A stretch of DNA of 64,000 nucleotides from an uncultured virus (IMG/VR IMGVR_UViG_2657245422_000003) (IMGVR_UViG_2657245422_000003:1-64000); one strand, 5' to 3'; numbered from the stretch's first letter, positions 6,641 to 34,321 are shown. Program-made: numbers and translations. The notes: generated by a model from the letters alone, not told the origin.

Positions 6641-7660
6641 ATGAGCATTGACGCAATGCGATGGGCCAAAAAAATCAAGACAGGGAAGTCCTCTGCAAAA
6701 GCGGTTCTGACCTGGATGGCCGACATGTGCGGAGCTGATCTCTGTGCTTTTCCATCCATTCCTGCGCTGGCAGAAGCAACTGAGCTGGATAAGAAAACGG
6801 TCCAGTCGAGCCTGCAGTATCTGGTTTCGATCGGGCTTATTGAAGATACAGGTGAACGGCGTGGAAAGACTAAACAAATCCCGGTTTACCGACTTCTTGG
6901 TGTGGAAGAAAGCGTTGCTGAAATTGAACACACCCAAAAACGGGAACATTACCAAAAACGGGATCGTTTAAACACACCCGAAAACGGGGTTGTTACAGCA
7001 GAAAAGGCGCCCGAAAACGGGACTGTTTCCTGTACGCAAAACAACCAAACAATCCCGTTTTTTCCGTCAAACGATCCCAAAAACGGGATCCGGAATCTAC
7101 CAGAGGAACCAAAAGATATAACCCCCACACATAGGGTTCTGGTCGAACCAGTTGTGCCGGCCTATCCGAATCAACCGGGAATAGTTCCTGGTGAAACACA
7201 ATCATTCGGAAAATTTGCGATGTATTTCGGGTGGAAACCTTCCGAAGATTTTTCCCGGCTGGCAACGATTTGGGGAATGCCATTAAGACCGGGGATAAAT
7301 CTTGCTGCCGAGTTGAGCAGTTTCATCGCGTACTGGCAGGCTGAAGGCAGGGTGTTTCACCAGGTCCAGTGGGAGCAAAAACTAGCAAGACATCTTAACC
7401 GTGCGGAAGTCCGCCAGAAAAAACCAGTGAACGGGGGTATCGATCATGTGGGAGTACGAGCAGAGCCAGCAGCATCCAGAGCTGTTCAACAGATTCGAGC
7501 CGCCCGTGAGCAACGGTTGCGAGTTGCAGGATCAGATGGCCGTAGAAACGGCATGGCGCCTATGGGAAGTGATGGGCGAAATCTTTTCGAACCGGTGGAT
7601 CCTGAAGAACGGAGAGGAACCATCAGAACTCTGGATCGCTCAGATTGGATCGATGAGTGA
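6641..7660 (+). CDS. Replication initiator (O-position): N-terminal HTH plus DnaT-like domain
   Basis: [32 protein letters not shown]...FIAYWQAEG...QWEQKLA; contains iterons. Confidence 0.85.
6933..7088 (+). repeat. Phage origin iterons
   Basis: CC(A/G)AAAACGGG copies at 6933, 6951, 6977, 7010, 7076 and an inverted TCCCGTTTTT at 7053, inside the initiator gene as in lambda O. Confidence 0.8.
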
Positions 7661-8117: not shown

Positions 8118-8130
8118 ACGAGTTTTGACC

Positions 8131-8571
8131 ATGGCCAAACAATCAAAAAACAAAGTAACCAAAGCACAGATGGTGCTTGCCATCGTTAGCCGGACGCCAG
8201 AATGCGTCCTGCAGGATGTTTGCGATGCGCTGGACTTGCAAGCCAGTACAGCAGGTAACTTGCTACGGCAGCTACATGCCGAAGGAAAACTCAATCGTAC
8301 CCATAACGGCTGCCAGTATGTCTACCGGGTTGTTGCAGGCGTTGAGGTTACCGATGTTGCCCTGCCGCAGGCTACAATACAATTATCTGAAGAGGATGTG
8401 AAAAAAATCCAGGAAGCACTGTCCCTGGCTAAGACCCTGGAAGACAAAAAGCTGTGGCGCCGGGCTGCGACTGTTTACACATCGACGCTTGGGATGGCTA
8501 CAACAGCAAACGAACTCTGGTTGCTTGCCAAAATGCGTAACCGCTGCCTGCGCAATGCGGCGAAGTGCTGA
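8131..8571 (+). CDS. HTH plus PerC-like protein
   Basis: C-terminal AKTLEDKKLWRRAATVY...RNRCL resembles PerC family. Confidence 0.65.
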   Translation: MAKQSKNKVTKAQMVLAIVSRTPECVLQDVCDALDLQASTAGNLLRQLHAEGKLNRTHNGCQYVYRVVAGVEVTDVALPQATIQLSEEDVKKIQEALSLAKTLEDKKLWRRAATVYTSTLGMATTANELWLLAKMRNRCLRNAAKC

Positions 8572-8653
8572 TTATGCCTAAAATGGAATCAACAGCAGCT
8601 GGTGCGGGATGTCAAAGCTAAGTTTAAATATTCCGGGGTGAGGCAAAGCTGAG

Positions 8654-8682
8654 ATGTCCGCTGAGTGCCAGAAGCTGACGTT
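8654..8682. repeat. Hairpin repeat, B orientation
   Basis: ATGTCCGCT-GAGTGCCAGA-AGCTGAC-GTT. Confidence 0.75.
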
Positions 8683-9118
8683 GCAACAATGTCTGTTGAC
8701 GATTTCTGCTGGCTCTACGCAAATGTGAAGCAGCGAAAACCAAAAATCATCGGTCGTATTGGTGCATTAAAGTTGATGTTGCTGTGCTGTCCAGTAAGTT
8801 AACTGAAGTAAGATCTTATCAGTCAACACAAGCGAACCTGTTTGAGCAATACCAATGAAAGTGTTTATTACGCGCATTAATTCAATCTTGCATCCACCAG
8901 TTAGAGATCGATGATTTAATTTGTAAAAGGAGGAATACATGATTAAAGACTAAATAAATGAGTCTATTCAGTAGGTTAGCTTTTTTATGACTAATCGATA
9001 AGTTAGCTGGCGTATAATAACGGAAGTAAAAAGTCACCACGTTTTTATGAAATAAGAATCATCTTAATTTATTGGATTTTTGCTTTTAAAAAAGTTATAA
9101 AAGGTCATACCCCCTTAA

Positions 9119-11140
9119 ATGAAGATGGAAAAAATGGCTGAATCGATAAATGTCTATCCGGGTAAACATACTTCTGTTAGAGAAGACCATTTTAGTCACC
9201 AAGAGAGAGATATAATTAATGTGTTGTCGAAAGAATTTTACGTTACGAACGGTGGAGGGATAATAACACTAACATCAAACAGTAAGTATAAATATATACT
9301 TTTACGCCCGACCGATATTTACATAGAAATGTTTAACCTCGATAGAGAGGTAATAGTTCTCTTTAGCGACTATACAAACTTCCAATCACGTACACTGGAT
9401 GCTTTTGAGCAGGCAGCGAAACAACTCTCATCTTTGAGAGTTGATAAAACCTGTTATATTTTGATAAGTAAAGATCTAAACATAGAAGAGAACATTAGTG
9501 AACTTATCAAAAAGGAGCCTGAAACAGCAAATATAGTTCCCTTCACATATGATGAAACGCAAAAAGCAAATTCCGATGGTTACTTTTTTAGAAACAGAGT
9601 TCAGAAATATTTATATAATCGAGATCTTTTTTCATTTGAAGCACCGTTGAAAAGTGATTGGCTTTTCTTCGGAAGAAATGAGATTATATTATCTACTATT
9701 AATCGCATGAAGGGGGGGAATAATTCTGGCATTTTCGGGCTGCGAAAAACTGGAAAAACGTCATTAATTAATGCCATATCCAGAAATCTACAAAAAAATG
9801 GTGAAATTGTTACAACCATAGACTGTCAAAGTCCATCTGTTAATAAAAGAAAATGGAACGAGGCTATCTATTATGTATGCAAGAAAACGAAAGACGATAA
9901 CTATCTTCAATCTTATCTTCCAGAAGAAATTGAATTTACTGAGAAGAATTCTGCTGACATTTTAGCGAAATTCGTCAGAGATGTTAATAATGAAAGAGGG
10001 AAGAAGTTATTTTTGATTTTCGATGAAATTGAGAATATTTCTAGAATTACATCTCCAACAGAACACTGGAGTAAAGGTTCTGATTTTCTTTATTTTTGGC
10101 AAACAATGAGAACAGTTTTTCAGACTGTAGGTATAAATTTAGCGTATTTGATTGTTGGCACAAATCCTTCATGCATAGAAACGCCTAGAATAGATAGTTC
10201 TGATAATCCACTGTTTAATCATTTCACGCCTACTTATCTTCCAGGTTTTGACATTCGCTCTACAAGAGACATGATAAGAAGAATCGGGAAAAGAATGGGG
10301 GTGAATTTTGAGGAAGCAATATATACAAATATCAACGAAGAATATGGTGGTCATCCGTTTCTTATTCGTCAAGTTTGTAGCATAATTGCAAGAAGGACTT
10401 TTAGTCAAAAAAAACCTATCAGCATAGGTAAGATTTCTTACAGGGATGCTGTAAAAGATTTTGGAGAAAATAGTTTTAATTACTTAGAAATGATTATAGG
10501 TGTGTTAAAAGAACACTATAGTGAGGAATATGAACTTCTCATTACTCTAGCAAATGAAGATAACGAAATTTTTAAAGAGAACTCTAGCAAAAAACAAAAT
10601 TCATTGGCACATCTTTTGGGTTACGGTATTTTAGGAAAAGATAACGATAGCTATTACTTTATCATTGATTCCATGAGGCGTTATCTGTTGGAAATAAACA
10701 AATACAGGAAAGTTGAAACAAATATAGAACAACGGTGGGCTGAAATATCTGAAAGACGAAATGCAGTTGAAAAAAAACTAAGAACAATAATAAAAACAAC
10801 TTTAAAGTCGATGTATGGAGAACAATTAGCGAAAGATGCAGTGCTTGACATATTGGGTAAACAAAGAAAACATGAATATATTTCTAAATCTATTAATGAG
10901 ATTTTTGACCCAAATTTATCTACAATTTACTTCGAAGATTTAAGGAAAATAATATCCAAAGAGTGGGGGTCATTTGAGAATATATTTGAAACCTCAAAAA
11001 AAGAAACTTTCGAGTCCCTGGGCTTTATAAATAAATATAGGTCAGATGCTCATGCTAAAGACATAACGCCTGATGAGTTTACTATATTCAGGCTTAGTAT
11101 TGAAAAGATTGAGAATGATATAGCGCGATATTTTTCCTAA
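9119..11140 (+). CDS. STAND-like P-loop ATPase with C-terminal Swt1/HEPN-like domain; candidate anti-phage protein
   Basis: FFGR, Walker A GLRKTGKTS, Walker B LFLIFDEIE, GGHPFLIR; C-terminal YFEDLRKII..EW..F..IF...YRSDAH; AT-rich. Confidence 0.75.
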   Translation: MKMEKMAESINVYPGKHTSVREDHFSHQERDIINVLSKEFYVTNGGGIITLTSNSKYKYILLRPTDIYIEMFNLDREVIVLFSDYTNFQSRTLDAFEQAAKQLSSLRVDKTCYILISKDLNIEENISELIKKEPETANIVPFTYDETQKANSDGYFFRNRVQKYLYNRDLFSFEAPLKSDWLFFGRNEIILSTINRMKGGNNSGIFGLRKTGKTSLINAISRNLQKNGEIVTTIDCQSPSVNKRKWNEAIYYVCKKTKDDNYLQSYLPEEIEFTEKNSADILAKFVRDVNNERGKKLFLIFDEIENISRITSPTEHWSKGSDFLYFWQTMRTVFQTVGINLAYLIVGTNPSCIETPRIDSSDNPLFNHFTPTYLPGFDIRSTRDMIRRIGKRMGVNFEEAIYTNINEEYGGHPFLIRQVCSIIARRTFSQKKPISIGKISYRDAVKDFGENSFNYLEMIIGVLKEHYSEEYELLITLANEDNEIFKENSSKKQNSLAHLLGYGILGKDNDSYYFIIDSMRRYLLEINKYRKVETNIEQRWAEISERRNAVEKKLRTIIKTTLKSMYGEQLAKDAVLDILGKQRKHEYISKSINEIFDPNLSTIYFEDLRKIISKEWGSFENIFETSKKETFESLGFINKYRSDAHAKDITPDEFTIFRLSIEKIENDIARYFS

Positions 11141-11146
11141 AGCCGA

Positions 11147-11177
11147 CCCCTTTTTTTGATTTTTAAAAAAAAGGGGG
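11147..11177 (+). terminator. Hairpin after the ATPase gene
   Basis: CCCCTTTTTTT...AAAAAAAGGGG inverted repeat just after stop. Confidence 0.5.
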
Positions 11178-11288
11178 CATACCTGATAGTCAATAAATTC
11201 TTTATGATTTTTCTACAGCTTTAACAATTTTAATTATAAATAAACTTCAACTTACATATAAATATCTATTGTTGCTTATTGATTTAGT

Positions 11289-11317
11289 ATGATCGCTCTG
11301 TGCCAATTGCAGACGTT
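11289..11317. repeat. Hairpin repeat, B orientation (degenerate)
   Basis: ATGATCGCT-CTGTGCCAAT-TGCAGAC-GTT. Confidence 0.65.
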
Positions 11318-11541
11318 GTTGCACTGCAAAAATATCTTGTCCGGATCAAGGTATCGCCACCACTTGTTAGGTGGATTAATCCGTATTTATAACAAATACA
11401 ATTCCCGGCTGTACCTATAAGCTGTTGTCAGTTATACAAAAGCGATGTAGTGTTCCACACATTAAATTTACAAACGTGGAAAAGTCCGTGTTTAGATACA
11501 GATTTTTCCGCTGAATAACCGCATATTTCCAAAGGTTTATC

Positions 11542-12507
11542 ATGAGTAAGTGGCTATTAGACAGGCTATTTGAAGCCGGTGATCAGGCAGAGCCCCGGTT
11601 TGCGTTTCAGGGGACTGTAAATTGGATGAGGGCCCTTGCCGAAGTCGTTAACGGTGGCGCTTGTTCCGATGATAAACTAAATGATTTATATGCTCGGGTA
11701 CAACGTAGACCTGTCAATCGTGAAGCTGATACGCTTGTGTTTGAGAACACAATGATGGCCTTACATAATCTGTCATCTTTGAAAAGTATGAATAAAGATG
11801 TCGAAGATAAATATGACATATGTCGTTCAGCTATTATTTCTTGGTATTACAGTATCTATTTTTCCGCTAGCGCGATGGTTGCAGCATCTTCTGGTTCTAT
11901 TCAAGAGACACATACAGCCACAGCAAAAGTTTGGCAGTCAGATATCGCGGAAAAAGAACTTATCCCATATCCATTTAATCTTCTTCTAACTAGTTTAGTT
12001 TCAAACACTGCTGATGCCGAGATTGCTGCATATAGAGGTGCTAACCGTTTCGACCTGAATGATAGAGCTTATGATAATGAAACTGCTCATGGTGCACTGG
12101 TTTCCTATCTAAAGGGGACTCATGGCTACAAAAAGTTGGAAACAGAAGAGAGGGTGAGAACTTCTCGTGATTTCAAAGCTCTTGGTGTTGACAACTTTCG
12201 CACGAAAGCTGCTCGCAAAGTTCGCGATCACGCACTAGAAAAAGGACAAGTTAATTTCCTTATTCAGGCGTTTAGATACCGTGGTAAAGCGAACTATCGT
12301 GACTCTATATTTTTATCCTACGGTGACAACAACGAAGCTATTATAGAAGAATTTATCCAAGATTTGTATGACGTCGCTATTGGCTTCATTAGGGCTACTT
12401 CGCATTATTGCAGTCGAAGAGTCGAGAGAGGTACGTGGGCTGAGTTTGTCGAGGATATTTCTGATAACTCAAGGTTGTCTATTGACTCTGTCGTGCTTGA
12501 AATATAA
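11542..12507 (+). CDS. HEPN-like protein, probable former integron cassette gene
   Basis: AIISWYYSIYFSASAM and YRGKANY resemble the two halves of a HEPN domain; stop codon lies in the attC R'' box. Confidence 0.6.
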   Translation: MSKWLLDRLFEAGDQAEPRFAFQGTVNWMRALAEVVNGGACSDDKLNDLYARVQRRPVNREADTLVFENTMMALHNLSSLKSMNKDVEDKYDICRSAIISWYYSIYFSASAMVAASSGSIQETHTATAKVWQSDIAEKELIPYPFNLLLTSLVSNTADAEIAAYRGANRFDLNDRAYDNETAHGALVSYLKGTHGYKKLETEERVRTSRDFKALGVDNFRTKAARKVRDHALEKGQVNFLIQAFRYRGKANYRDSIFLSYGDNNEAIIEEFIQDLYDVAIGFIRATSHYCSRRVERGTWAEFVEDISDNSRLSIDSVVLEI

Positions 12508-12627
12508 CAAACAATTTAAGAATGGCTCAGCACGCTTGGCATTTTCAGTTTGGTTCAAATTTAGTGATTAAGGTATTCAAATTGAGTATGGTGAATACGT
12601 GCTTCACACTTTAATTGGGCGTTAATG
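12502..12627 (+). other. Integron attC-like site (Vibrio-repeat type, 126 bp)
   Basis: ATATAAC (12502) ... CAATTTAAG pairing with TTTAATTG, AGCACG (12529) with CGTGCT (12598) ... GGGC-GTTAATG (12621). Confidence 0.8.
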
Positions 12628-12695
12628 CCCGCTTTTCGCTCACCGCGGACCTTTAGCGCAGTGAGCTTGTCCGCTCAGTGCCAGGAGCAGATGTT
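12625..12695. repeat. Inverted hairpin pair A+B
   Basis: GCCCGCT-TTTCGCTCAC-CGCGGAC (12627) and GTCCGCT-CAGTGCCAGG-AGCAGAT (12669), 42 bp apart. Confidence 0.8.
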
Positions 12696-12787
12696 GCTAT
12701 GTTGTGGTGCGTTAATCAAGCGTACGGCCAAGAAAAATGCGGGAAGAAAAAGGCCGCTAATGCGACCCAAATTGAACAAGAAGTCAG

Positions 12788-13960
12788 CTATTGATATTGA
12801 GAAAGATACTCTGCAACTCCATTCGCCGGATTTAGTCCACCGGTATAGACTGTTCCTAGTTCTTGAGGCGTAACATATGTGGTAGGCCATATAACCATAT
12901 CTTTAAAATAGTTATCTATTTTAATTCTTGTGAGCTCTTTAAAAAGATAATCATCTAATTCATTTCGTTTTAAACAATTAACATAATAAGCTGCCGCACT
13001 TGCTACTATATCTGCGATTTGTAGTTGAGGATATTCTTGCGATGAATGGAATGTCAAAGAGCGAGCTTTAATTGGTAACTCAAAAGTCCTTCTATCATAT
13101 CCATATACCTCCGTAATTTTTGACATATCCATAAATTTATTAAAAATATCTTGTTGTTCTGTAATCGCTTTGGAATCGTCATGCTTAATATAAAAACCGT
13201 TGGGATATAATTTACCCCATTCTATACAGTGCTTGAAGAGAGAGGGTATGGAAGGATCTAGTGTATTTTTTTCAACATCTTCTAGAATGTCATCAATTTC
13301 ATTTTTGGTAATGCTAATTCTATTGATTGTGTCTACAAACCTTTGGTCGCTTGAACATGCCTTTAGCTCATCAACTGACGTGTAAAATTCATCAATAGAT
13401 TCAGGGGTTTGATTTCTAATCATGCTCATAAATTTTTGATACATTTTATCTGTTTTCTCCTCTCCACAGAAAGCTGGAAAACAGAAATAATAAACATTAG
13501 ATAGAGCAAGATTCTGCCCATTTTTATAAAGATCTAACCCTCGATTGAAACACCATGCTTCGATTAAAATATCAACAATTTTTGTTGTTAACATATACTT
13601 TTTATCGACCAAAAAGATTTTGACATTTTCTTCATTGACGTACTTGCTTTCAAGAAGTCTAATAATTCCATCCTGGCCTGATTTTCTACGTCTAAGAGTT
13701 TTAAAGTGAGCTTCTGCTGGTGACTTGCTTCCAGTTAGCTCTAATGCTTTAAGTGCGTCTGGTTTATTAATGCTACTTGAACTTAAGGTGAAAAAAGGTT
13801 GTGTTGAATCAAGTAAATTTCCGCCGGTATTACCCGACTCATCAAAGAATATATCAGGTTTTATGTACATCATTTTATTTTTCTTTGCAGTTAACTCTCT
13901 TATTTTTTCGTTTTTCTGCTTTTTCTTATTCACGCGTCTACTTTGACTATTCTTACCCAT
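12788..13960 (-). CDS. DUF3800-like (RNase H-like fold) protein
   Basis: IFFDESGNTG near the N-terminus, LQIADIVA near the C-terminus; AGGAGG RBS; AT-rich. Confidence 0.75.
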   Translation of the reverse strand: MGKNSQSRRVNKKKQKNEKIRELTAKKNKMMYIKPDIFFDESGNTGGNLLDSTQPFFTLSSSSINKPDALKALELTGSKSPAEAHFKTLRRRKSGQDGIIRLLESKYVNEENVKIFLVDKKYMLTTKIVDILIEAWCFNRGLDLYKNGQNLALSNVYYFCFPAFCGEEKTDKMYQKFMSMIRNQTPESIDEFYTSVDELKACSSDQRFVDTINRISITKNEIDDILEDVEKNTLDPSIPSLFKHCIEWGKLYPNGFYIKHDDSKAITEQQDIFNKFMDMSKITEVYGYDRRTFELPIKARSLTFHSSQEYPQLQIADIVASAAAYYVNCLKRNELDDYLFKELTRIKIDNYFKDMVIWPTTYVTPQELGTVYTGGLNPANGVAEYLSQYQ

Positions 13961-14105
13961 AATACCTCCTGATTAATTTGGAACAAGAATGTTAATTTAA
14001 GGCATTAATAACATAGAGGTGATAATATCACTTAATACAAGTTTAATTCTATATTTTACATCAAGCTTGACTCACTATTTTTTTGATAAGAGTAAAATAG
14101 TGAGG

Positions 14106-14176
14106 ATGTCCGCAATTCGCTCGAAGCAGACCTTCATCCCATTCAGATTGTCCGCTCTGTGCCAAGAGCGGAATCT
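14106..14176. repeat. Inverted hairpin pair A+B
   Basis: GTCCGCA-ATTCGCTCGA-AGCAGAC (14108) and GTCCGCT-CTGTGCCAAG-AGCGGAA (14150), 42 bp apart. Confidence 0.8.
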
Positions 14177-14347
14177 GGAACGCCAGAGGTAGCAACGTTT
14201 CTTATCAAAGGTGTTGATCACCACAAAAATGACTGTATCCCTATGATAGCGGATTTCGTCCTTTATGGAGAAAAGATCAATCTAAACATGAGCATGGGTT
14301 AGCGAAAAGTGGCATTAAACGCTTGAACATTTCACCTAACAAGTATA

Positions 14348-14363
14348 CTGTTTATTTATACAG
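14348..14363. promoter_or_regulatory. LexA (SOS) box
   Basis: TA-CTGTTTATTTATACAG-TA, CTG-N10-CAG, just upstream of dinI-like gene. Confidence 0.9.
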
Positions 14364-14384
14364 TACTTGCGTGAGGAGCTAGTT

Positions 14385-14618
14385 ATGAAAGTGGAAATCA
14401 CAATTGATCGCCAAAAAAAATTGCCGGATGACGCTGTGCCTGCTCTGGAGAAGGAGCTACTGCGGCGATTGGATCAACACTTTAATAACTGCAGTCTTGT
14501 GATTCGTCGGGCCAGCTCTGATAGGTTGACCGTGCTTGGTGGAATGGACGGAGATAAAAAACGTGTAGAGGAAATCCTGCAGGACACCTGGGAAAGCGCT
14601 GATGACTGGTTCTGTTAA
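14385..14618 (+). CDS. dinI: DinI-family protein
   Basis: MKVEITID...ALEKELLRRL...VEEILQDTWESADDWF; GAGGAG RBS. Confidence 0.9.
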   Translation: MKVEITIDRQKKLPDDAVPALEKELLRRLDQHFNNCSLVIRRASSDRLTVLGGMDGDKKRVEEILQDTWESADDWFC

Positions 14619-17650: not shown

Positions 17651-18103
17651 TTTACTTACCTCGCATTTACCTGATATCAGTGAGTGCTACATAGAGTCAG
17701 GGCTTCGCAATAGCTTTAAGTATTAGAATGCATACAATTTAAGTGGGCGTTGTTGGCTTATATTATGGCAGAGGCGCTGGCGGTATGGTCAGATATTGAC
17801 ACTTTGAATGTTTGCATCATAAATTATTGAGGTGGTGAATCCCCCTATGCGGAGGGGCGACCAGTCAGTTACAGAAACCTGTAAATGCAGCGCGGGCCAT
17901 GCCGACTGGGGCATGCTCACCGGGAGGCACCCGGCACCACACTGTCACTAAGCATATTGAATATTTCATAGTGGGTTTACTTTTGCGGTTGCCCTTCTAT
18001 GTTTATAGAACGTAACGGCAAAAGTGAATGCTTCCTGGTAAATCGGTAGCTCGGACTATTAGGAGTTCCTTCGTTTCGTTACTACCTAGAATGCCTACTT
18101 TCT

Positions 18104-22656: not shown

Positions 22657-23091
22657 ATGGCCGGAGGAATTCGATCGTCCGGTGGTGGCCGAAAACCCAC
22701 TTTACCCACCGGGCAAAAAAGCAAATTAACACGTATTGCGCCCCCCGCTGAGTTAATGGGGGAGGCGGCAATAAGAATGTGGAAGACGCAAAGCAAAATA
22801 CTCATCGACCGAGGAGTGTTTGAGCTGGAGGACGCACCTTTGTTGCTGGCTTACTGCAATGCTTTTCATCTGATGCTCGAAGCCGAAAAAATGCTGGCCA
22901 GCGGACTGACCTCAGAAAGTGAAATGGGGGGCCTGAAAAAACACCCTGCAGTTAATGTCCGGAATGACTCGGTTTCCCAGCTTGCCCGCCTGGGCTCTCT
23001 GTTGGGGTTAGATCCGCTCAGTCGTCTTCGCATGACCAGCGGACAAAAGGATCCGGACGATGACGGGAATGAATTCGATGAGTTTGACTGA
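22657..23091 (+). CDS. terS: Terminase small subunit (P27 family), helper
   Basis: [22 protein letters not shown]. Confidence 0.9.
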
Positions 23092-23738
23092 TGGCAACCT
23101 ATCCGAACGTCAATGCAGCGAACCAGTATGCGCGGGATATCGTTGGCGGGAAGATTCTGGCGTGTCAGTTAACGATACTTGCCTGTCAGCGACATCTGGA
23201 CGACCTCGAACGAGCCAAGGATCCCCACTGGCCCTACCGCTTCGATAAAAACAAAGCAGAACGATTTCTTCGTTTTGCCCAGAAAATGCCTCATACCTCA
23301 GGGGAATGGGCCCGGCGTAAACTCCGGATTGAATTTGAAGCCTGGCAGAAGTTCGCTCTTGGCGTACCGTTTGGATGGGTACACAAGAAGACAGGCCTGC
23401 GTCGTTTCTCTGAAATCTATATCGAGGTGCCCAGGAAGAACGGGAAATCCGCTATTGCCGCTGCTGTAGGAAATTATATGTTTTGTGCAGATGGCGAGCA
23501 TGGTGCAGAAGTCTATTGCGGCGCCACGACTGAAAAACAGGCATGGAAGGTATTTTCTCCGGCGCTGCAAATGGTGAAAAAGCTGCCGGCATTGCGGCAA
23601 AAATTCTCGATAAAACCCTGGGCAAAAAAAATGACGCGCCCTGACGGTTCGGTTTTTGCGCCTGTGATCGGTGACCCGGGGGATGGTGATTCGCCATCAT
23701 GCGCCATCATTGATGAATATCACGAGCATACAACATAG
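23091..23738 (+). pseudogene. terL: Helper terminase large subunit, 5' part, interrupted at Walker B
   Basis: Walker [10 protein letters not shown]; ends [15 protein letters not shown] at the satellite left junction. Confidence 0.93.
23716..23734 (+). repeat. Satellite attL core
   Basis: AATATCACGAGCATACAAC; 17/19 identical to 39332-39350. Confidence 0.88.
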
Positions 23739-23852
23739 AGGTTTCAGAGGAACGGTAGTGTTCGTGATTGTTCGTTAACTTAATGAGAGTTATGGTTTTT
23801 TTTGATTTTGATGTTCGAGCATGATCGCATCCGTTTTCTCCGTTACGGGCCA

Positions 23853-23875
23853 CTGTGTATTGCAGTGTGTATTGC
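23853..23875 (+). repeat. Tandem integrase arm-type site (left)
   Basis: CTGTGTATTGCAGTGTGTATTGC; 21/23 identical to 39238-39260. Confidence 0.75.
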
Positions 23876-23900
23876 TTTTGTGTGAGCAGAGAGTGAGAAG

Positions 23901-25136
23901 ATGGCTGCAGAAAATAAACTTAGTGATAGGCAACTAAAAGCGCTACAGGGTAAATCGCAGACTAAGCAGCGGTTGATTTCAGACGGTCGCGGAATGTCGG
24001 CGAGAGTTAGCAAGAATGGGGCTGTGAGCTTTGTGATGTTCTACCGCTTGGGCGGTAGGGATACTTCCCCAATATGGCTGACGCTGGGCAAGTATCCTGC
24101 TATGTCATTGAAAATGGCACGAGATAAACGTGATGAATGTAGGGCTTGGCTTGCTGAAGGGATCGACCCACGTCACCGGATCGGCTTAATCACTGATGTG
24201 TCGGAAAGGCCAGTTACCGTAAAAGATGCGCTTGATTATTGGTTAGAGTATTACGCCAAGCCTAAGCGCAGAACTTGGGAGGTCTGTGAACAACGGTTTG
24301 CCCGATACATTTATGGTCGCCTGGGGGATGTACCTCTAACCCTGTGTAATGCAGCAATGTGGGTAAAGTGTTTTGATGAAGTGAGAAAAACAGCTCCGGT
24401 AGCTGCTGGTCATACATTCCGAGACGTAAAACAGGCGCTCAAGTTTTGCCGGGTACGCCGTTATGCTATCTCCAGCGAACTGGATGATTTTACCGTTATG
24501 GATATGGGGGAAAGGGCGCAAAAAAGGGATCGTGTACTCACAGCTGATGAAGTGCGGGACGTTTGGTATTGGGCGAATACTGAGGAAAACAATACCAAAT
24601 TATCACCAGTTAACAGGGTGACACTTGTCATAATGATCGTATTCGGTTGCCGTGGACGTGAATTGCGGGAGTCGCTCTGGAATGAATGGGACTTTAAAGA
24701 GTGGATTTGGACAGTGCCCAAAGAACACAGTAAGAATGGGCGCGAAATTATTCGCCCAATCCCCCCGCAAATCCGTCAATGGCTTGTAAACCTTCGTGCA
24801 ATTGCAGAGGAGGAGGGTACCGAGCGCCTACTTAATGGTGAATTTTCAAAACAGACAGTTATGAGCACGGTTGGTAGCCGTTTTTGGCGTAAGTTTAGGC
24901 ATGAAAAATCATGGTGCCTGCATGACCTTCGTAGAGTTCTTGCAACCAATCTAAATGACATGGGGGTTGATCCCCACGTTGTCGAACAGCTCTTGGGACA
25001 TACGCTACCGGGGGTTATGGGAATTTACAATCGTAGCCAATATCTGGCCGCAAAACATGATGCACTGACGAGATGGGTAGACTACCTGAATTCGTTGATC
25101 CGTTCAGATGCTAAGGAGGAAAGTTCCAATGTATAA
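23901..25136 (+). CDS. int: P4-like tyrosine integrase (satellite)
   Basis: DGRGM...LTLGKYPAMSL arm domain; FGCR, HDLRR, LLGH, YNRSQY. Confidence 0.95.
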   Translation: MAAENKLSDRQLKALQGKSQTKQRLISDGRGMSARVSKNGAVSFVMFYRLGGRDTSPIWLTLGKYPAMSLKMARDKRDECRAWLAEGIDPRHRIGLITDVSERPVTVKDALDYWLEYYAKPKRRTWEVCEQRFARYIYGRLGDVPLTLCNAAMWVKCFDEVRKTAPVAAGHTFRDVKQALKFCRVRRYAISSELDDFTVMDMGERAQKRDRVLTADEVRDVWYWANTEENNTKLSPVNRVTLVIMIVFGCRGRELRESLWNEWDFKEWIWTVPKEHSKNGREIIRPIPPQIRQWLVNLRAIAEEEGTERLLNGEFSKQTVMSTVGSRFWRKFRHEKSWCLHDLRRVLATNLNDMGVDPHVVEQLLGHTLPGVMGIYNRSQYLAAKHDALTRWVDYLNSLIRSDAKEESSNV

Positions 25137-25347
25137 ATTCATGAGTAAAGCAGAACTTGAACTGATACCAGATCTGGAACGTGTTATCCGAGAACAGGAA
25201 TGTTTTTGGATGACTGGTCTACCAAAATCTACTCGTGCTTTTATGGAGAAAAAGGGACAGTTTCCAAAGCATCTTGTGCTGGGCCCTAAAATTTGTGCTT
25301 GGCGACTCTCTGAAGTGCAAGAATGGATAAAGACCAGGGCACAGTAA
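25129..25347 (+). CDS. alpA: AlpA-family regulator/excisionase
   Basis: TGLPKST...KKGQFPK..LG...AWRLSEVQEWI. Confidence 0.85.
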   Translation: MYKFMSKAELELIPDLERVIREQECFWMTGLPKSTRAFMEKKGQFPKHLVLGPKICAWRLSEVQEWIKTRAQ

Positions 25348-25367
25348 ACCGACACTTTTCAAATCAC

Positions 25368-25393
25368 ACCCGCTTCTTCAGGCGGGTTTTTTT
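25368..25393 (+). terminator. Intrinsic terminator between the alpA genes
   Basis: ACCCGC...GCGGGT followed by T-run. Confidence 0.65.
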
Positions 25394-25409
25394 ATAGGAT
25401 TTTCTGCTG

Positions 25410-25649
25410 ATGAAAAAATTTATTGAACCAACCCCAGAGGAACGCCGGCAGTTACTAAACGAGTACGGTGTTCCATACGACCGTATTGTTCGTGAGAAAG
25501 AGCGTCGTGAGATTACTTCGCTTTGTAGATCGTCAGCGTGGGAGATGGAGCAGAATGAAGCATACCCGCAGCGACGCAAAATTGGTAAAGCAGGTGCAGG
25601 TTGGCTTCTTAGTGACCTGCTTTTCTGGCTAAGAACTCTTGAGAGGTAA
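25410..25649 (+). CDS. alpA: Second AlpA-family protein
   Basis: RIVREKERREITSLCRSSAWEME...YPQRRKIG...GWLLSDL. Confidence 0.8.
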   Translation: MKKFIEPTPEERRQLLNEYGVPYDRIVREKERREITSLCRSSAWEMEQNEAYPQRRKIGKAGAGWLLSDLLFWLRTLER

Positions 25650-25967
25650 TTTCTAGATGTTAAACCTTCAACCTACTGTAATTTATGAAGAAAAGGTGAA
25701 GGACTTCCAGTGAAAGATTGATCATCATGAAAAAATGGCAGTTGTTGATAAGGATGGTCTGGAGTAAATTATTACATTGATCGCTTTCTTTGTAAGAGAC
25801 ACTGTTTGGATTTAATCGCTCTGGCGAACAGAACTCGTTGGAAGGTAGTCAAAGTTTGAAAAAGGTTAAACTTGGTACTTCTGGTGTTGCATAAATCCTT
25901 TCTGAAATCCAAGTGTGGATAAAGGGGAGGAATAAAGTTTATTTAGACTTATTCGGGTGGGTAATAA

Positions 25968-26726
25968 ATGGACTATATAACTGAAGGCGTTTTAGATAAA
26001 GTAATTAATGATTTAACTTATAGAGCTAATAAAGCCAGAAAAGCAAGATTTTTAATCGGTGGTTCGATTATCCTCATTGCAACCATGCTTTCTGGGTTCA
26101 TCACTTATAGATTAACTGCTAATCAATCAGATAGTAGCCTTGCTAATACATTCATGGCTTTTAGAGATCGTTTAGTTGTCAGTGAAGATGGTGGTTTGAG
26201 AGGATTTATTAACAAAGAATTAGGCCAGGTTTATGAGAGTGAAAAAGATGTAGTTCGTTTGCGAGTAGAGAACGAAAGTTCAATACCATCTGAAAAAAAC
26301 AAAATTAACAATGACGGGAATGGTAGGCAGATCACACAAACCACTAATAAGAAAGAGGCTCTGGATAATGCAAGTAGGTTGGTTGATTTTTACACAAAAG
26401 TGGTTGCGGCGAATAACGGTAAACCAATAAATAAAACGGATGATACTTATAGTAATTTAATAAGCTCCATAGCATTATCTGCAGGTATTGTAGGTTTTCT
26501 ACTCTATATACTTCAGATTGCTGTAAGTTTTATAAGATATTATTCTAGGCTTGCAGAGTTGTATGACTCACAAAAAACAGCTTTAATTGCTTCTGATGGT
26601 AATGTCGAATCCGCAGAGATTTTAATGAAGATATTATCTAATGACCATATTGGATTAGGGAAGGAACCTACTACCTTATATGGAAAAGCATTAGATGTGA
26701 TTGGTGAGGTAGCGAAGTCAAAATAA
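25968..26726 (+). CDS. AT-rich membrane protein (satellite cargo)
   Basis: 252 aa with two hydrophobic segments (FLIGGSIILIATMLSGFI; IALSAGIVGFLLYILQIAVSFI). Confidence 0.7.
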   Translation: MDYITEGVLDKVINDLTYRANKARKARFLIGGSIILIATMLSGFITYRLTANQSDSSLANTFMAFRDRLVVSEDGGLRGFINKELGQVYESEKDVVRLRVENESSIPSEKNKINNDGNGRQITQTTNKKEALDNASRLVDFYTKVVAANNGKPINKTDDTYSNLISSIALSAGIVGFLLYILQIAVSFIRYYSRLAELYDSQKTALIASDGNVESAEILMKILSNDHIGLGKEPTTLYGKALDVIGEVAKSK

Positions 26727-27141
26727 GATTTATTAAAAGGCGCGTTTTTAATGCGCCCTTCTATATTTATTGAGAATGAAAAACGAATTAATTTAATGAT
26801 GGTTTTATTTTATGGCGTATAATAGGGTTTTATTACTCAAGGCTTTCATATATAGCTTGTAGATAAATGTATGTCTGTGCCGTACTTTGAAATATGAGTA
26901 ACTGCATTTCGGGATTGCTCTTTCCTACTCCTATGAGTTGGGGGGTATAGACTGTGTAATATATTAGTGATCCGCGCAATTCGGTGTCGACATGAAATAT
27001 TGCATTCTCCCGCTTCACGATTGCGCGTCATGATGAAATCTACTGGTTCATATAGCACTGTCAGTATACAAGCATTCATGCTACCGCTGCTTTGGGAGAA
27101 AAATCGTATTTTATTATCACTTTCCTTGTAAAGAATGAGAA

Positions 27142-27312
27142 TCAACCCATGGGCTTGATACCGCGTGATTGCAATTCTTTTCGGATAATCCGTTTGATCC
27201 AGGTTGCAAGTGATGAGTCACCATCTTTGCGCATTTCTTCTTCAAGTTGTGCACGCAGTTCATGGGCTAAACGGATTTGGTACTGATCAGTTTTTGATTT
27301 TTGTGTTGACAT
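27142..27312 (-). CDS. 56-aa ribbon-helix-helix-like regulator (below ORF-track cutoff)
   Basis: MSTQKSKTDQYQIRLAHELRAQLEEEMRKDGDSSLATWIKRIIRKELQSRGIKPMG; divergent from icd operon. Confidence 0.7.
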   Translation of the reverse strand: MSTQKSKTDQYQIRLAHELRAQLEEEMRKDGDSSLATWIKRIIRKELQSRGIKPMG

Positions 27313-27357
27313 TGTAATTACAAAATTCCTATCATCGTCTCGTTTTTGTAATTACAA
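27306..27357 (+). promoter_or_regulatory. Satellite rightward promoter with two palindromic operators
   Basis: TTGACA 27306, TATCAT 27330; TTGTAATTACAA at 27312-27323 and 27346-27357. Confidence 0.7.
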
Positions 27358-27459
27358 CGTAACTTTCGTTTTTTTGCAACCATAAGAAACGACGAAGCCC
27401 CGATGTGCTCGAACACTATCGGGGCTTCTAACCACAAACCGTTAACTGGAGTAACGACT

Positions 27460-27738
27460 ATGGCTGGAACACAGCATACCCAAACTTACCCCAAATTTAC
27501 ATGGCTATTCTTGGCTACCCGAGAAGCGCTTTCTGAATGTTCACCTGTAGTCCTCAGATGTGATGCAGATTCGGAGGAGGATGCTCGAGCAATCTTCCCT
27601 GAGTGGCATCTAACCTTTGCAGCAAAAATCCGTACTGAAAGTCCCTATTCGTTTACATGGACCGACAAAAATCGAGCAACTCTCTGGTCAATAATGGGAG
27701 GCGAAATCAGCCTCCCTCTGGAGGCTCGAAATGTCTAA
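27460..27738 (+). CDS. Icd-like (Ash family) protein
   Basis: FTWLF...ADSEEDARA.FP.W.LTFAAKIR; preceded by GAAGCCCCGAT...ATCGGGGCTTC hairpin. Confidence 0.8.
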   Translation: MAGTQHTQTYPKFTWLFLATREALSECSPVVLRCDADSEEDARAIFPEWHLTFAAKIRTESPYSFTWTDKNRATLWSIMGGEISLPLEARNV

Positions 27739-27985
27739 GCCACAACTGGGCTATATCGCAGATCTAAAAAATCTTGAAGAGCATGAACAGGAGTTGCGTA
27801 CTGCCTCGCTTAGCGCTGCCCAAGCAAAAATCGTGGCGACTATGCTGGTGTGTTATCCCAACGTAATGGGGGACGGTGAAATTACCGCGATTGGCCAGTT
27901 ATTTGAGTCCCTGGCCACTAACCTCGATAGTTTCTTGAAAGCAGGATGCGAGCGTTTTGAAAGTTGTTCGGAGGTTCAGTCATGA
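27731..27985 (+). CDS. Hypothetical satellite protein
   Basis: 84 aa, coupled to neighbours. Confidence 0.6.
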   Translation: MSKPQLGYIADLKNLEEHEQELRTASLSAAQAKIVATMLVCYPNVMGDGEITAIGQLFESLATNLDSFLKAGCERFESCSEVQS

Positions 27986-28350
27986 TTAGCAACATCAAAT
28001 TCAATGAACTGGAAAAACGCTTTGATCTGCTGGTGGAGAAAGTCAACGTTCTTGAAGAAAAAGTAAGATCGCTGACTGATAGTCAGGGCGGTGAAATCCC
28101 ACCCGGTATGACTCCTGTCGCTACGCTGGCGGCTGAGTATGGCATTTCTACCAAAAAAGCGGAGGAACTGGCGAAAAATACGGGCGTTATGTTGGTTAAG
28201 CTGAAATCAGGTGGCTTTATTGTGCCTGACGAGAAATTCAGGGAAGCGGCCCGACTGGTTCTCCGTAGCGCAAAAAGAAAATACGGTTCGGCCTACTGGT
28301 TTCATCCGCTGATAGGCAAATTCCAAATGAGCGGAGGGATCCCGAAGTGA
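27982..28350 (+). CDS. Hypothetical satellite protein preceding primase
   Basis: 122 aa, N-terminal coiled coil, coupled to neighbours. Confidence 0.65.
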   Translation: MISNIKFNELEKRFDLLVEKVNVLEEKVRSLTDSQGGEIPPGMTPVATLAAEYGISTKKAEELAKNTGVMLVKLKSGGFIVPDEKFREAARLVLRSAKRKYGSAYWFHPLIGKFQMSGGIPK

Positions 28351-30149
28351 AAAATGCACCTAACGTAAAGGCGCTGCCGAAAGACAAGTTTACAGAAGCG
28401 ATTATTTTCGCGGGTGCCGACGCGTGGAGTCATGCCAAAGGCTGGGAAGAGGGGTTAGGTAAGCAGATCGCGGAAGATACCACGCCTCCTGTTTATCTTG
28501 GCCCGCGGCAACTGGAGGAACTGGACAACCTGCGCATTATCGATGATGGCCGCAGAGCTGCGCGGGTATATCTGGCTGGCGATATCGAGACGTCGATGAT
28601 TAGTGCCATTGGTGCCAAACTGGCACTGGCTGGGGTACAGGAGGCAAAACTTTATAAGAGTATTCCCGATACTCATCCGGAGGACTGGCGCGATCATCTT
28701 AATCGGATTAGGGAAGGAAAAAGCACAGTAGTAAATCTGCCAGTGACGAAAAGAGAACCAGCGCATGATGAAGTTAGCCCGGCTCTTAATCAGATGGGGG
28801 CCAGCCAGCGCGGGCAAGTGCTGCTGGCCCATTACGATGGAGACCTGGCTATTCATGCTGATTCGGACATGGTTCACCACTATAACGGTGTGATCTGGAA
28901 TCCACTCCCGGATAAAGAGCTGCAACGGGCAATGGCGCAGATTTACATTGATGCTGAGGTAGCCTATTCGCAGAACGCCATCAAATCGGCGGTGGAAACC
29001 ATGAAGCTGAGTCTGCCGGTGATGGGCGTAACAGCCCGCAACCTCATTGGCTTCAGCAACGGCGTATTTGATACCCGGACGGGGCAGTTCAGGGAGCACA
29101 GCAAAACCGACTGGTTGTTGATTGCCAGTGAACTGCCATTCAGTCCACCAACTGAGGGGGAGACACTGGCCAGCCATGCGCCGAACTTCTGGAAGTGGTT
29201 ACGCCGTTCCGTGGCCAACAACGACCGCAAAACAGACCGTGTGCTGGCGGCGCTATTTATGGTGCTTGCGAACCGGTACGACTGGCAGCTGTTCCTTGAG
29301 GTTACGGGCCCCGGCGGTAGCGGTAAAAGTGTGATGGCGGAAATATGCACCATGCTTGCGGGCAAGGCCAATACTGTATCAGCCAGCATGAAAGCGCTGG
29401 AGGATGCCAGAGATAGAGCGCTGGTGGTTGGGTACTCACTTATCATCATGCCGGATATGACCCGCTATGCTGGCGATGGCGCCGGGATTAAGGCAATTAC
29501 CGGCGGTGACAAGGTTTCTATCGATCCTAAGCATAAAGCGCCATATTCAACCCGTATTCAGGCTGTGGTGCTGGCGGTCAACAACAATGCAATGACCTTC
29601 AGCGACCGGAGTGGTGGGATATCGCGCCGCCGAGTTATATTCAACTTCACGGAAATAGTTCCGGAAAACGAGCGCGATACGATGTTGGCTGAAAAGATAG
29701 AAGGTGAGCTGGCCGTCATCATTCGCCATCTGCTGACCCGTTTTGCAAGCCAGGACGAAGCCAAACAGCTGCTGCACGAACAGCAGAAGTCAGAAGAAGC
29801 ACTGGCTATCAAGCGAGAAGGGGATTCGCTGGTGGATTTCTGCGGTTATCTGATGGCGTCGGTAGTTTGCGATGGAATGTTTATCGGCAATGCGGAGATT
29901 GTGCCATTCAACCCGCGCAAATATTTGTATCACGCCTATCTGGCTTACATGCGAGCCAATGGCCTGAGTAAGCCGGTTTCTCTGATGCGGTTTGGAACCG
30001 ATATGCCAGGCGCAATGGCTGAGTACGGCAAGGATTACCTAAAGCGCAAGACCAAACATGGTATACGTTCCAATGTAACTCTGCATGACGATTCAGAAGA
30101 CTGGATGCCATCATGTAATAGTATATCTGCAAGTGGTGCGGTAGAGTAA
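28347..30149 (+). CDS. P4-type primase/SF3 helicase replication protein
   Basis: IGFSNGVFD (D5_N-like), Walker A GPGGSGKS, IKAITGGD, SRRRVIFNF, C-terminal winged helix. Confidence 0.9.
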   Translation: MKNAPNVKALPKDKFTEAIIFAGADAWSHAKGWEEGLGKQIAEDTTPPVYLGPRQLEELDNLRIIDDGRRAARVYLAGDIETSMISAIGAKLALAGVQEAKLYKSIPDTHPEDWRDHLNRIREGKSTVVNLPVTKREPAHDEVSPALNQMGASQRGQVLLAHYDGDLAIHADSDMVHHYNGVIWNPLPDKELQRAMAQIYIDAEVAYSQNAIKSAVETMKLSLPVMGVTARNLIGFSNGVFDTRTGQFREHSKTDWLLIASELPFSPPTEGETLASHAPNFWKWLRRSVANNDRKTDRVLAALFMVLANRYDWQLFLEVTGPGGSGKSVMAEICTMLAGKANTVSASMKALEDARDRALVVGYSLIIMPDMTRYAGDGAGIKAITGGDKVSIDPKHKAPYSTRIQAVVLAVNNNAMTFSDRSGGISRRRVIFNFTEIVPENERDTMLAEKIEGELAVIIRHLLTRFASQDEAKQLLHEQQKSEEALAIKREGDSLVDFCGYLMASVVCDGMFIGNAEIVPFNPRKYLYHAYLAYMRANGLSKPVSLMRFGTDMPGAMAEYGKDYLKRKTKHGIRSNVTLHDDSEDWMPSCNSISASGAVE

Positions 30150-30159
30150 ATTTATTGAT

Positions 30160-30395
30160 AAAGTGTTCACCACTATTCATCATGGTAAAAAGTCCTTTTA
30201 TTACATGTCATTAGATGGTGAACATTTCTTTGTGAAGTATTCATCAGGTATTCACCTGTTCATCTTTTGCTTGTTTTATGTTCTAAAAGGTGAAGGGGGG
30301 AAGTGAACACTTGTGAATACTTAAAAGTGAGGTGTTCACCGCTTAACTTAATGAATTTTAACGATAAAAAGATAAGGGTGAACGGGTGAATACTT
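30160..30395. repeat. Satellite origin iterons
   Basis: About ten GTGAA(C/T)A / (G/A)TTCAC copies in both orientations in AT-rich DNA after the primase gene, similar to P4 GGTGAACA iterons. Confidence 0.75.
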
Positions 30396-30441
30396 AAGCA
30401 TATAATATTTATATTAAATTTCATTTGCTACGGAGTATTGG

Positions 30442-30783
30442 ATGCAACGGCTTATTGAAATCAAAGAGCGTCTGGGTGTCATCGAAAGGTATCTTGATAT
30501 ACAGGCCCCGTTTTACAAACGAGATCTTAATATCTCAACTTTAATCACTGATCTAAAGGACCGTGTAGAGAGAAACCATAAATGGTTACAGCGCCAGAAA
30601 TATCAAGGTATGTTAACTGAGTTTGAATCAATATTTATTGAGCCCGCAATTAATGATATTTATCTATCTTCGATAGTTAATCTTAAACGAGGCGTAAAGC
30701 CAAGTGATACAGTAAGTAATTATATATCTGAATCCTTATCCACTGTTGACTATTGGATTTCACATATTCCTAATAATCAATGA
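30442..30783 (+). CDS. Hypothetical protein (satellite cargo)
   Basis: 113 aa, GGAG RBS, AT-rich. Confidence 0.65.
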   Translation: MQRLIEIKERLGVIERYLDIQAPFYKRDLNISTLITDLKDRVERNHKWLQRQKYQGMLTEFESIFIEPAINDIYLSSIVNLKRGVKPSDTVSNYISESLSTVDYWISHIPNNQ

Positions 30784-30838
30784 ATTATGAATGGTGTGTT
30801 TTTTCTTTATATTTAATCTAAATGTTTATGGTGATGGT

Positions 30839-33708: not shown

Positions 33709-33759
33709 TCTGACGTTTAAGGGGCTTCTGCCCCTTTTTGCCCTCTGTGGAGTCCAGTA

Positions 33760-34320: not shown

Positions 34321-34321
34321 T

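Follow-up and report, generated by a model that had tools for sequence, protein, structure and literature searches.

Two-type 28-bp inverted repeats at the borders of exchanged accessory-gene cassettes in lambdoid and P2-like phages

Introduction

The closest described counterparts of the locus analysed here are the inserts of the Z-region of P2-like phages. Z-region inserts flanked by repeats were described earlier, as was a site-specific proposal for their origin, the title of a 2004 paper by Nilsson, Karlsson and Haggard-Ljungquist (Mol Biol Evol 21:1) on the P2-like Z-region proposing site-specific recombination. The present locus lies at positions 8654 to 14176 of a 64,000-nucleotide stretch of an uncultured virus (IMGVR_UViG_2657245422_000003:1-64000; taken from the start of a 71-kb provirus record of IMG/VR, hereafter the window) and consists of three accessory-gene cassettes bounded and separated by six copies of a 28-bp inverted repeat with one of two centres, designated type B and type A. 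It is tentatively proposed that these sites serve a conservative exchange that is integron-like in its logic, with 28-bp sites of two types of its own and an enzyme acting in trans, which would shuttle cassettes among lambdoid phages, P2-like phages and Enterobacterales chromosomes, the sites being related to a REP-like repeat of Alphaproteobacteria. The window and P2 sites resemble each other as members of one family, scored by the same model and weight matrix, and conserved inverted repeats stand at both borders of the P2 inserts (the features annotated in GenBank AJ512680 are B and A). However, the P2 inserts lie between G (tail-fibre assembly) and FI (sheath), whereas the window array lies between a perC-like gene and dinI in a lambdoid backbone and holds three cassettes with internal sites.

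Integron attC sites carry conserved core boxes and are crossed over near their 3' end. The likeness to integrons lies in co-oriented cassette arrays with imperfect palindromes between the cassettes, in a part of the site that travels with the neighbouring cassette and in cargo that often consists of AT-rich accessory or defence genes; the differences are that neither IntI nor attI was found by the window array and no integrase beside the chromosomal arrays described below, and that the present sites are 28 bp long and of other sequence, with the crossover in the middle of the palindrome and two alternating types. The pdif modules of Acinetobacter plasmids are XerC/XerD-dependent and use dif-like 28-bp sites in which two arms enclose a 6-nt centre, with the recombinase encoded elsewhere. 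They likewise comprise accessory modules bounded by 28-bp sites of this geometry on unrelated replicons, but the present arms appear by eye unlike those of dif-type sites, both arms belong here to the same palindrome, and copy numbers above 100, as in the genomes of some Alphaproteobacteria, would be hard to reconcile with active Xer sites.

Repetitive extragenic palindromic (REP) sequences, together with bacterial interspersed mosaic elements (BIMEs) and REP doublets forming hairpins (REPINs), are intergenic palindromes arranged in doublets or clusters of alternating subtypes and associated with REP-associated tyrosine transposases (RAYTs). The present sites also form doublets and clusters between transcription units and reach high copy numbers in some genomes. 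In contrast to such elements, however, no Y1_Tnp/RAYT match was found in five genomes checked, nor in 46 of 78 genomes with B sites, and copy numbers in enterobacteria are low (0-16 in 201 genomes), where the sites mark phage cassette borders. Finally, Arbiol et al. reportedly described in 2010 the 'mobile regulatory cassettes' of T4-type phages (PeSLs), each an early promoter with a stem-loop, proposed to drive modular shuffling. These resemble the present sites as short repeated stem-loops between accessory open reading frames (ORFs) in hyperplastic phage regions, and differ in that promoter-like signals are not enriched at the present sites, which cross phage families and also occur in chromosomes.

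The fast turnover of defence genes at fixed phage hotspots, with jumps between unrelated elements, is treated as an open question by Rousset et al. (2022, PMC9122126) and by Moura de Sousa et al. (2026, PMC13586616), the latter considering transposons as well as homologous and illegitimate recombination and settling on none of them. A short portable cut-and-rejoin site, if true, would provide a concrete and testable mechanism for this turnover, as well as a sequence tag for cassette borders, and hence for new defence genes, in phages and chromosomes.

Results

The six sites of the window

The site is a 28-bp inverted repeat with arms ATGTCCGCT and AGCGGACAT and a 6-nt centre, GTGCCA in type B and TCGCTC in type A; in the aligned sites 2 nt stand on each side of the centre, between it and the arms, and loop positions 5-6 are G-C in A and B alike. 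An earlier reading of the window made from its sequence alone (the sequence-only reading) had listed six copies with two loop types and two A-to-B spacings of 42 bp (12625 to 12667 and 14106 to 14148), and all of these were re-found, as was the layout B-[673-aa ATPase-like ORF]-B-[321-aa ORF]-A/B-[DUF3800 ORF, minus strand]-A/B. The sites are as follows (dG, folding free energy in kcal/mol; z, score relative to shuffled sequences).

8654..8681, + strand: site B1, centre GTGCCA at 8665-8670; fold dG -2.4, z -0.64; apparently hybrid, weak pairing
11289..11316, + strand: site B2, centre GTGCCA at 11300-11305, lone B between cassettes 1 and 2; 3 mismatches, degenerate left arm, fold z -0.32
12625..12652, + strand: site A1, centre TCGCTC at 12636-12641, left half belonging to cassette 2; fold z -0.29
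12667..12694, + strand: site B3, centre GTGCCA at 12678-12683, 42 bp after A1; found by pattern and covariance model
14106..14133, + strand: site A2, centre TCGCTC at 14117-14122; left arm cargo-linked, backbone from TCGCTCGAAGCAGACC onward
14148..14175, + strand: site B4, the conserved last B ahead of dinI; the same 32-mer recurs unchanged in 31 of the 150 top-scoring model matches; fold dG -8.5, z -5.3

Searching the window for TGTCCGCTNNGTGCCANNAGC with up to 3 mismatches returned 4 matches (0.18 expected), a number far above chance and reached in 0 of 100 shuffles. The six copies scored 30-37 bits with a covariance model and nothing else in the 64 kb exceeded 14.2 bits; the six match by construction, both the model and a weight matrix having been built from such copies. 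The weight matrix also returned no copies beyond the six. The copies are confined to cargo borders. The stem previously written as GTCCGCT/AGCGGAC had to be revised, as an exact-pattern search found this perfect inverted repeat 0 times in the window.

Exchange of cassettes between backbones

Within-backbone exchanges are uninformative on the position of the crossover and transfers between backbones were therefore used. An exact-pattern scan of viral contigs returned at least 122 stretches, 80 of them with flanks, and 55 of these 80 lacked PerC, P, DinI and their neighbours. Many of the 55 belong to a second lambdoid type with the order O-like, DnaC-like, DUF1627, DUF977, B, cargo, A, small ORF, hok, its cargo including HEPN/RES+GNAT, NUDIX+HAD and AIPR genes among others, while locus L157 is P2-like and carries a DarT-macro pair (DarTG) downstream of an acyltransferase gene and the gene for tail-fibre assembly. 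The proteins that precede the first B in the two lambdoid backbones, PerC-like in one and DUF977 in the other, gave no alignment with each other at E<=100, and there is therefore no shared adjacent factor. Four cassette types were common to PerC-type and other backbones, at 86.6-99.3% identity over 1.0-2.4 kb.

L115/128/130/148/164 versus L006: 98.5% over 1033 bp
L156 versus L076: 99.3% over 2416 bp
L107/L143 versus L040: 96.9% over 1910 bp
L157 (P2-like, DarTG) versus L015: 86.6% over 2135 bp

For modules found in more than one context, homology begins or ends within a site. The constant part of the first B comprises the left arm, GA at loop nucleotides 1-2 (52/52) and GTGCCA (51/52), and its cargo-dependent part comprises loop nucleotides 9-10 (9 variants) and the right arm (18 variants); in the terminal A, TCGCTC, the right arm and the linker are constant and the left arm and first loop bases vary by cargo. 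More than one B right half was seen in none of 32 cargo clusters, and more than one A left half in none of 35. At the B junctions between backbones, loop nucleotides 1-2 track the backbone (TT versus GA), the centre is common, and nucleotides 9-10 and the right arm track the cargo, the A junctions being the mirror image of this pattern; the identity common to the two parents at a site amounts to 6-9 bp in all. These alignments show that a cassette, as defined by sequence comparison, has one end in the centre of a B site and the other in that of the A site following it; the cargo-side half-site moves with the cassette and the other half stays with the backbone. The proposal of the sequence-only reading that the motifs are borders of exchangeable cassettes, with cargo breakpoints of related prophages falling at them, was therefore upheld: cassettes recur in unrelated backbones and the breakpoints fall in the sites. 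The position of the switch in the centre (at about 5 left and 4 right junctions), flanked by equally long arms and with an identity of only 6-9 bp, points to an enzyme-directed exchange and not to a homology search.

The same half-site pattern was found in the window, whose cassettes are listed here.

8682..11288, + strand: cassette 1, AT-rich (GC content ~0.30-0.36), with the 673-aa STAND/AAA-like ATPase ORF at 9119-11140
11295..12642, + strand: cassette 2, with the 321-aa ORF at 11542-12507 and a 3' palindromic/attC-like tail; borders verified in other genomes
12695..14105, - strand: cassette 3, with the DUF3800 gene at 12788-13960 (390 aa)

Cassette 2 is 99.6% identical over 1348 bp (11295-12642) to a segment of the Escherichia coli chromosome NZ_CP076527 (L416, 1921226-1929308), and it occurs in contigs of two other samples (runs X16 and X18) with other flanks, ending at 11294 and 12642. 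Its final 83 bp recur at 100% identity in 42 of 5426 E. coli genomes, ending at 12642, one base past the A centre, which is also where the homology of A1 to the E. coli and X16 copies stops. The right half of B2 is joined in NZ_CP076527 to a better left arm, and the better pairing of the B arms in the E. coli copy than in the window fits the view of the window sites as hybrids. In B1, the left arm and loop nucleotides 1-2 (GA) are of the backbone type and the right arm AGCTGAC is cargo-linked; the right half of A2, GA+AGCAGACCT, is found in 29 of 61 A sites, the left halves of which vary with the cargo. The doublet formed by A1, the linker and B3 constitutes the junction between cassettes 2 and 3.

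Action on single-stranded DNA hairpins had been suggested for the motif. Folding as single-stranded DNA gave no better result than shuffled sequences for copies 1-5 (dG -1.3 to -2.9 kcal/mol, z -0.64 to +0.81), so that five of the six window copies do not fold and the suggestion is not borne out for them; the sole window copy that folds well is the one at 14146-14177 (dG -8.5, z -5.3). Most copies in other loci have perfect 9-11-bp stems, with dG -11.5 to -12.3 and z -6 to -7 for those folded. In the best reading of these comparisons, five of the six window copies would be recombinant, poorly pairing hybrid versions of the site and products of exchange.

It was also considered that the sites might be coding remnants, as all copies start with ATG or TTG and the two A+B units are in frame with wobble-like differences (by eye). 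This idea was dropped because ATG...CAT is the outer stem, the sites are palindromic and intergenic, and those of P2 and of chromosomes keep no fixed position relative to genes.

Related perC-dinI loci

A search with the PerC-like protein yielded 80 viral loci, of which the 63 with dinI downstream were kept and the 17 without it were dropped; the stretch between perC and dinI is 1352-7904 bp long. The weight matrix placed 189 sites in the intervals of the 63 loci (297 kb) and 0 in the remaining 846 kb, the matrix and model having been trained on such sites and the outside DNA scanned identically. The model gave 169 matches in the 80 loci and the OK490419 locus L001 (1.36 Mb), and among its 150 best matches 124 fell in the 63 loci, all 124 of them inside the interval. 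Sites are co-oriented, in the order perC, 97 bp, B and cargo, followed by A-(40-42 bp)-B before each further cargo, so that doublets like A1-B3 recur; the array ends with a last A-42-B, a conserved 205-bp segment and dinI, and a lone A or B sometimes stands between cargos. The 148 segments between sites form 61 clusters, and modules m3, m5, m8 and m2 recur with different neighbours. An all-versus-all BLAST breakpoint histogram placed 153 of 659 end clusters within 16 bp of sites, versus 22 for random points; it is blurred by the conserved flanks, and explicit junction alignments were therefore relied on.

Outer stem positions vary on both sides (ATG/CAT, GTG/CAC, AGG/CCT). In 78 distinct sequences, 86% of cells were paired, and two-sided changes were counted in 19 cells versus 9.6 in shuffles, 1 of 500 shuffles reaching 19. 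The support that these counts lend to a kept palindrome is real but modest.

The cargo, judged on the ORFs of representative clusters, consists mostly of known anti-phage systems: a SAVED+SMODS+ThiF+JAB set, three DarT-macro pairs, AIPR and OLD-TOPRIM genes; reverse transcriptases with SLATT or AAA_15 partners, and AAA_15/21 with DUF4435; ThsB-TIR/SLOG/patatin sets, SIR2_2 and a 1974-aa DUF4011 helicase-nuclease; and a cytidine deaminase, Zeta toxin, GAF-EAL and a thymine-hypermodification pair. Cassettes are often multi-gene, with genes in either orientation. Insertion sequence (IS) copies (DDE_Tnp_1, IS1, IS110-type and rve-type) in the arrays of L060, L065, L025, L012 and L152 are secondary insertions.

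Proposed mechanism and its rivals

The two arms around a 6-nt asymmetric centre and the two non-interchangeable centre types suit a conservative recombination that works by double exchange. In the best reading, which we regard as quite possible though short of probable, an enzyme acting in trans would break the DNA within the 6-nt centre and rejoin it there. Two such events, B x B at one end of a cassette and A x A at the other, would swap it between two DNA molecules, and one event alone, between direct repeats of B or of A, would release the cassette as a circle or insert such a circle. The poorly pairing window copies would be hybrid products of these exchanges. The wider proposal of an integron-like system is held somewhat more tentatively than this cut-and-rejoin step.

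Several findings weigh against such an exchange. The switch was mapped to the centre at no more than about 5 left and 4 right junctions between backbones, a simple one-site (Campbell-type) insertion does not predict different centres at the two ends, and in 11 of the 63 loci cargo is present without any detectable site. No candidate recombinase was found in the window apart from the phage Int (lambda-type, 1-1128) and a satellite Int (23901-25136), and none was found in 115 cargo ORFs, or common to the cargos, or beside the chromosomal arrays that were fetched, in agreement with the earlier statement that no cognate recombinase is adjacent; the 73 ORFs next to cassette ends with an extended repeat (see below) hold neither a transposase nor a recombinase. 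No circles or joints were seen in four sequencing runs, three of which consist of contigs and the fourth of one raw read, a result that has no bearing on excision. In enterobacteria the sites also separate ordinary chromosomal genes, and in two alphaproteobacterial genomes, for each of which 150 candidates were scored, at least 102 and at least 72 model matches were obtained, a REP-like abundance that needs no cassette system.

The last two findings bear on a different explanation, in which the sites are REP/BIME-like hairpins that lie where transcription units end, have a function of their own, such as stabilising transcript ends or binding a host factor, and provide micro-homology for single-strand annealing or host recombination, cassettes seeming to swap there as the sites are the sole short sequence common to unrelated DNA. 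This explanation is regarded as somewhat less likely than the proposed exchange. The alphaproteobacterial matches lie in clusters with a spacing of ~45 nt between housekeeping genes, and the copies (L347-L353) share the same 9-bp stem and have several loop types (TTGGCAC, GACCCA, G-rich), which by sequence and arrangement is REP/BIME-like behaviour. Among 201 sampled enterobacterial-family genomes, 78 hold 1-16 B sites, often in co-oriented arrays and often as A-B doublets between ordinary operons; in the arrays fetched, A-(33-42 bp)-B doublets stand between units for LysR+SDR, GNATs, LysE, arsBC, ParDE and a TonB receptor, and Erwinia and Pantoea chromosomes have B..A around GNAT/RidA, ADH and AbiTii genes. 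Parental sites fold strongly as hairpins, and the window phage encodes a RecE-like exonuclease. However, every informative switch between backbones lies in the 6-nt centre and not in the identical arms, which are equally long or longer, the common identity of the parents is merely 6-9 bp, and the orientation of the sites tracks the backbone and not the direction of the cargo genes. Neither promoter-like signals (21 versus 19.9 expected) nor terminator-like signals (4 versus 3.9 expected) are in excess at the sites, and Rfam gave 0 matches at E<=1 for window 8500-14400, the alphaproteobacterial clusters and the P2 Z-region. Were the REP-like explanation right instead, the sharpness of module borders in these phages would still be explained.

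The sites themselves appear to belong to a wider REP-like family of intergenic palindromes, and the exchange role may be built on a repeat that has another life. The sequence-only reading had named membership of a REP family spread without regard to accessory genes as evidence against a cassette system, and part of this was found, namely a high-copy REP-like intergenic repeat in two alphaproteobacterial genomes. The model gave 2, 8 and 10 matches in three enterobacterial genomes. A loop-free pattern scan of species genomes returned mostly chance matches, 92 of the 107 matches listed having 'other' loops; 13 of the 107 have the B centre and come mainly from Alphaproteobacteria.

As the enzyme of the proposed exchange, a RAYT/Y1 transposase was rejected: PF01797 was matched in 0 of 5 genomes, the two alphaproteobacterial ones included, and Y1_Tnp is absent from 46 of the 78 B-positive genomes. 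The richest of these (16 sites) is among those without a Y1_Tnp match, the genomes being incomplete and absence therefore not proven.

Extended cassette ends

Many cassette ends carry a terminal inverted repeat of ~50 bp with the site arm outermost, reading AGCGGACRTTGCTAACA...GGGAGCAGGTC from outside to inside; it was found in 15 distinct contexts, at both cassette ends, and also at a P2-like Z-region border. Examples of GACCTGCTCCC...GATTCACACAGAATG...CTGTTAGCAAT with the site arm are L008:11260-11340, L088:5177-5250 and L207:5001-5066, others occurring likewise in lambdoid and P2-like loci. Such ends would be expected if the cassettes were non-autonomous transposable units, cargo between terminal inverted repeats being moved into a palindromic target by a transposase in trans. 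This origin appears unlikely, since no target-site duplication is seen and the B and A loops differ, none of 73 ORFs in or beside such cassettes encodes a transposase (the IS copies being secondary insertions), and the repeat is absent or degenerate in many cassettes, those of the window having degenerate versions only. The matching arms on the backbone sides also suit a site-by-site exchange better than insertion. A 16-nt end-motif scan for an autonomous element returned 51 loci, some of them chance matches in unrelated viruses, and such an element was ruled against by the 0 of 73 ORFs with a transposase or recombinase.

The P2 Z-region

A junction query matched the segment of a P2-like record that separates the gene for tail-fibre assembly from gpFI, with a B site at the left border and the extended repeat and an A site at the right border. 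In canonical P2 (NC_001895), a B site lies 57 bp after gene G and a degenerate A precedes the pF region (FI); the two, neither of which is annotated in NC_001895, enclose the T5-exclusion gene fun(Z). Passages of two papers treat the position of fun(Z) as a known variable 'moron' locus of P2-like phages (PMC3573123, PMC3091744). In the proviral Z-region of P2-EC46 (GenBank AJ512680), the annotated 'left inverted repeat' ends exactly at the right arm of B and the 'right inverted repeat' begins at the A site. The motif, which the sequence-only reading could not assign to a named family, thus has a named precedent, and the reading's picture of a loader of defence genes into one prophage hotspot is too narrow for sites that bound fun(Z) in P2 and flank ordinary chromosomal genes. 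Exchange at these sites would link fun(Z), the classic locus of lysogenic conversion in P2, to the hotspots of lambdoid phages, and the presence of common sites in lambda-like phages, P2 and chromosomes suggests a route of gene movement between unrelated elements.

In the P2 backbone, the flanks to the left of B and to the right of A are mutual inverted repeats over ~16 bp, like one split palindrome. This arrangement, together with the G-C at loop positions 5-6 of both centre types, would suit B and A sites that are attL/attR-like products of one integration, in which a site on a cassette circle joined a site in the backbone and both were cut at the central GC in the manner of serine integrases. 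The parental centres required, GTGCTC and TCGCCA, however, occur 0 times in ~470 distinct sites (3.1 Mb of loci, mostly chosen for B/A sites), and no serine recombinase was found in the window, in cargo ORFs, in cassette-end ORFs or beside chromosomal arrays, which makes such an origin very improbable.

B-type sites were also observed, mostly unannotated, in P2-like phages of Yersinia (e.g. L-413C), Escherichia and Klebsiella and in the lambdoid Escherichia phages mEp460, Tritos and Evi. A literature string search for the motif returned 0 papers for 15-16-mers, the 9-mers matching only unrelated primers. In the literature searched, with Nilsson et al. 2004 known by its title, no account was found of the two centre types, the half-site segregation, the sharing of the sites with lambdoid phages and with chromosomes or the alphaproteobacterial repeats.

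Cassette genes and prophage setting

The cargo assignments of the sequence-only reading stood in part. The cassette 3 gene is a DUF3800 gene as predicted (Pfam E 9e-12; phrog_12991, E 5e-166), and an 82% identical homologue of this gene alone is found in 36 E. coli genomes. The 673-aa ORF, predicted to be an ATPase, gave weak Pfam matches to AAA_22, ATPase_2 and nSTAND, every one under the curated cut-offs, and no PHROG match. For the 321-aa ORF of cassette 2, described as HEPN-like, there was no match in Pfam, PADLOC or PHROGs, and this label was not retained. The E. coli copy of cassette 2 (L416) adjoins pao genes and a type II restriction-modification pair, consisting of a restriction endonuclease and a cytosine methyltransferase; these neighbours support a defence-related role of the 321-aa gene. 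The tail of cassette 2 (12505-12630) contains imperfect inverted repeats and travels with the cassette into E. coli; read as an attC, it forms one fold that is no better than shuffles (z -0.93). A small terminator-like hairpin (12616-12631) lies at the end of the tail and overlaps the left arm of the A site.

The gene order of the window is lambdoid, with Int, Xis, a RecE-like exonuclease, a repressor-type HTH gene, YdaS/YdaT, O-like and P replication genes and the PerC-like gene in the left part and, after the AT-rich stretch, dinI, a gene with a LexA DNA-binding domain, DUF968/HNH, a Q-like antiterminator and lysis genes. The GC content drops from ~0.50 to 0.29-0.44 across ~8700 to ~14250. 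The closest named phages are Klebsiella phages, one of which (OK490419) has both flanks in common with the window and different cargo. The backbone features next to the array are the following.

8125..8571, + strand: PerC-like/winged-helix activator gene, left backbone flank and last conserved gene before the array; weak Pfam HTH_IclR/PerC matches, phrog_1324 transcriptional activator (E 2.6e-47)
14176..14366, + strand: segment m0, the conserved 205-bp segment from the last B to dinI; cluster m0 is common to most of the 63 loci
14367..14618, + strand: dinI, right backbone flank; Pfam DinI (E 2e-24)

Within m0, window 14176-14302 resembles by eye the 3' portion of a small ORF, of which Klebsiella phage Kp4865-4 has a longer version (L001, ~6830-6984), and by this resemblance the segment may be a gene remnant. 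At the Rfam gathering threshold the sRNA STnc100 alone matches in the window, away from the sites, as a full-length match downstream of the Q-like gene (17799-18004; 79.9 bits, gathering score 47). A satellite-like element at 23091-40428 splits the large-terminase gene of the prophage into an N-terminal part (23091-23738) and a C-terminal part (39223-40428). It carries an integrase (23901-25136), a primase (28347-30149) and a large terminase of its own (37236-38897), as well as a major head protein, protease, portal, adaptor, HNH and small terminase, a gene set that we take to resemble that of capsid-forming satellites of the phage-inducible chromosomal island (PICI) type.

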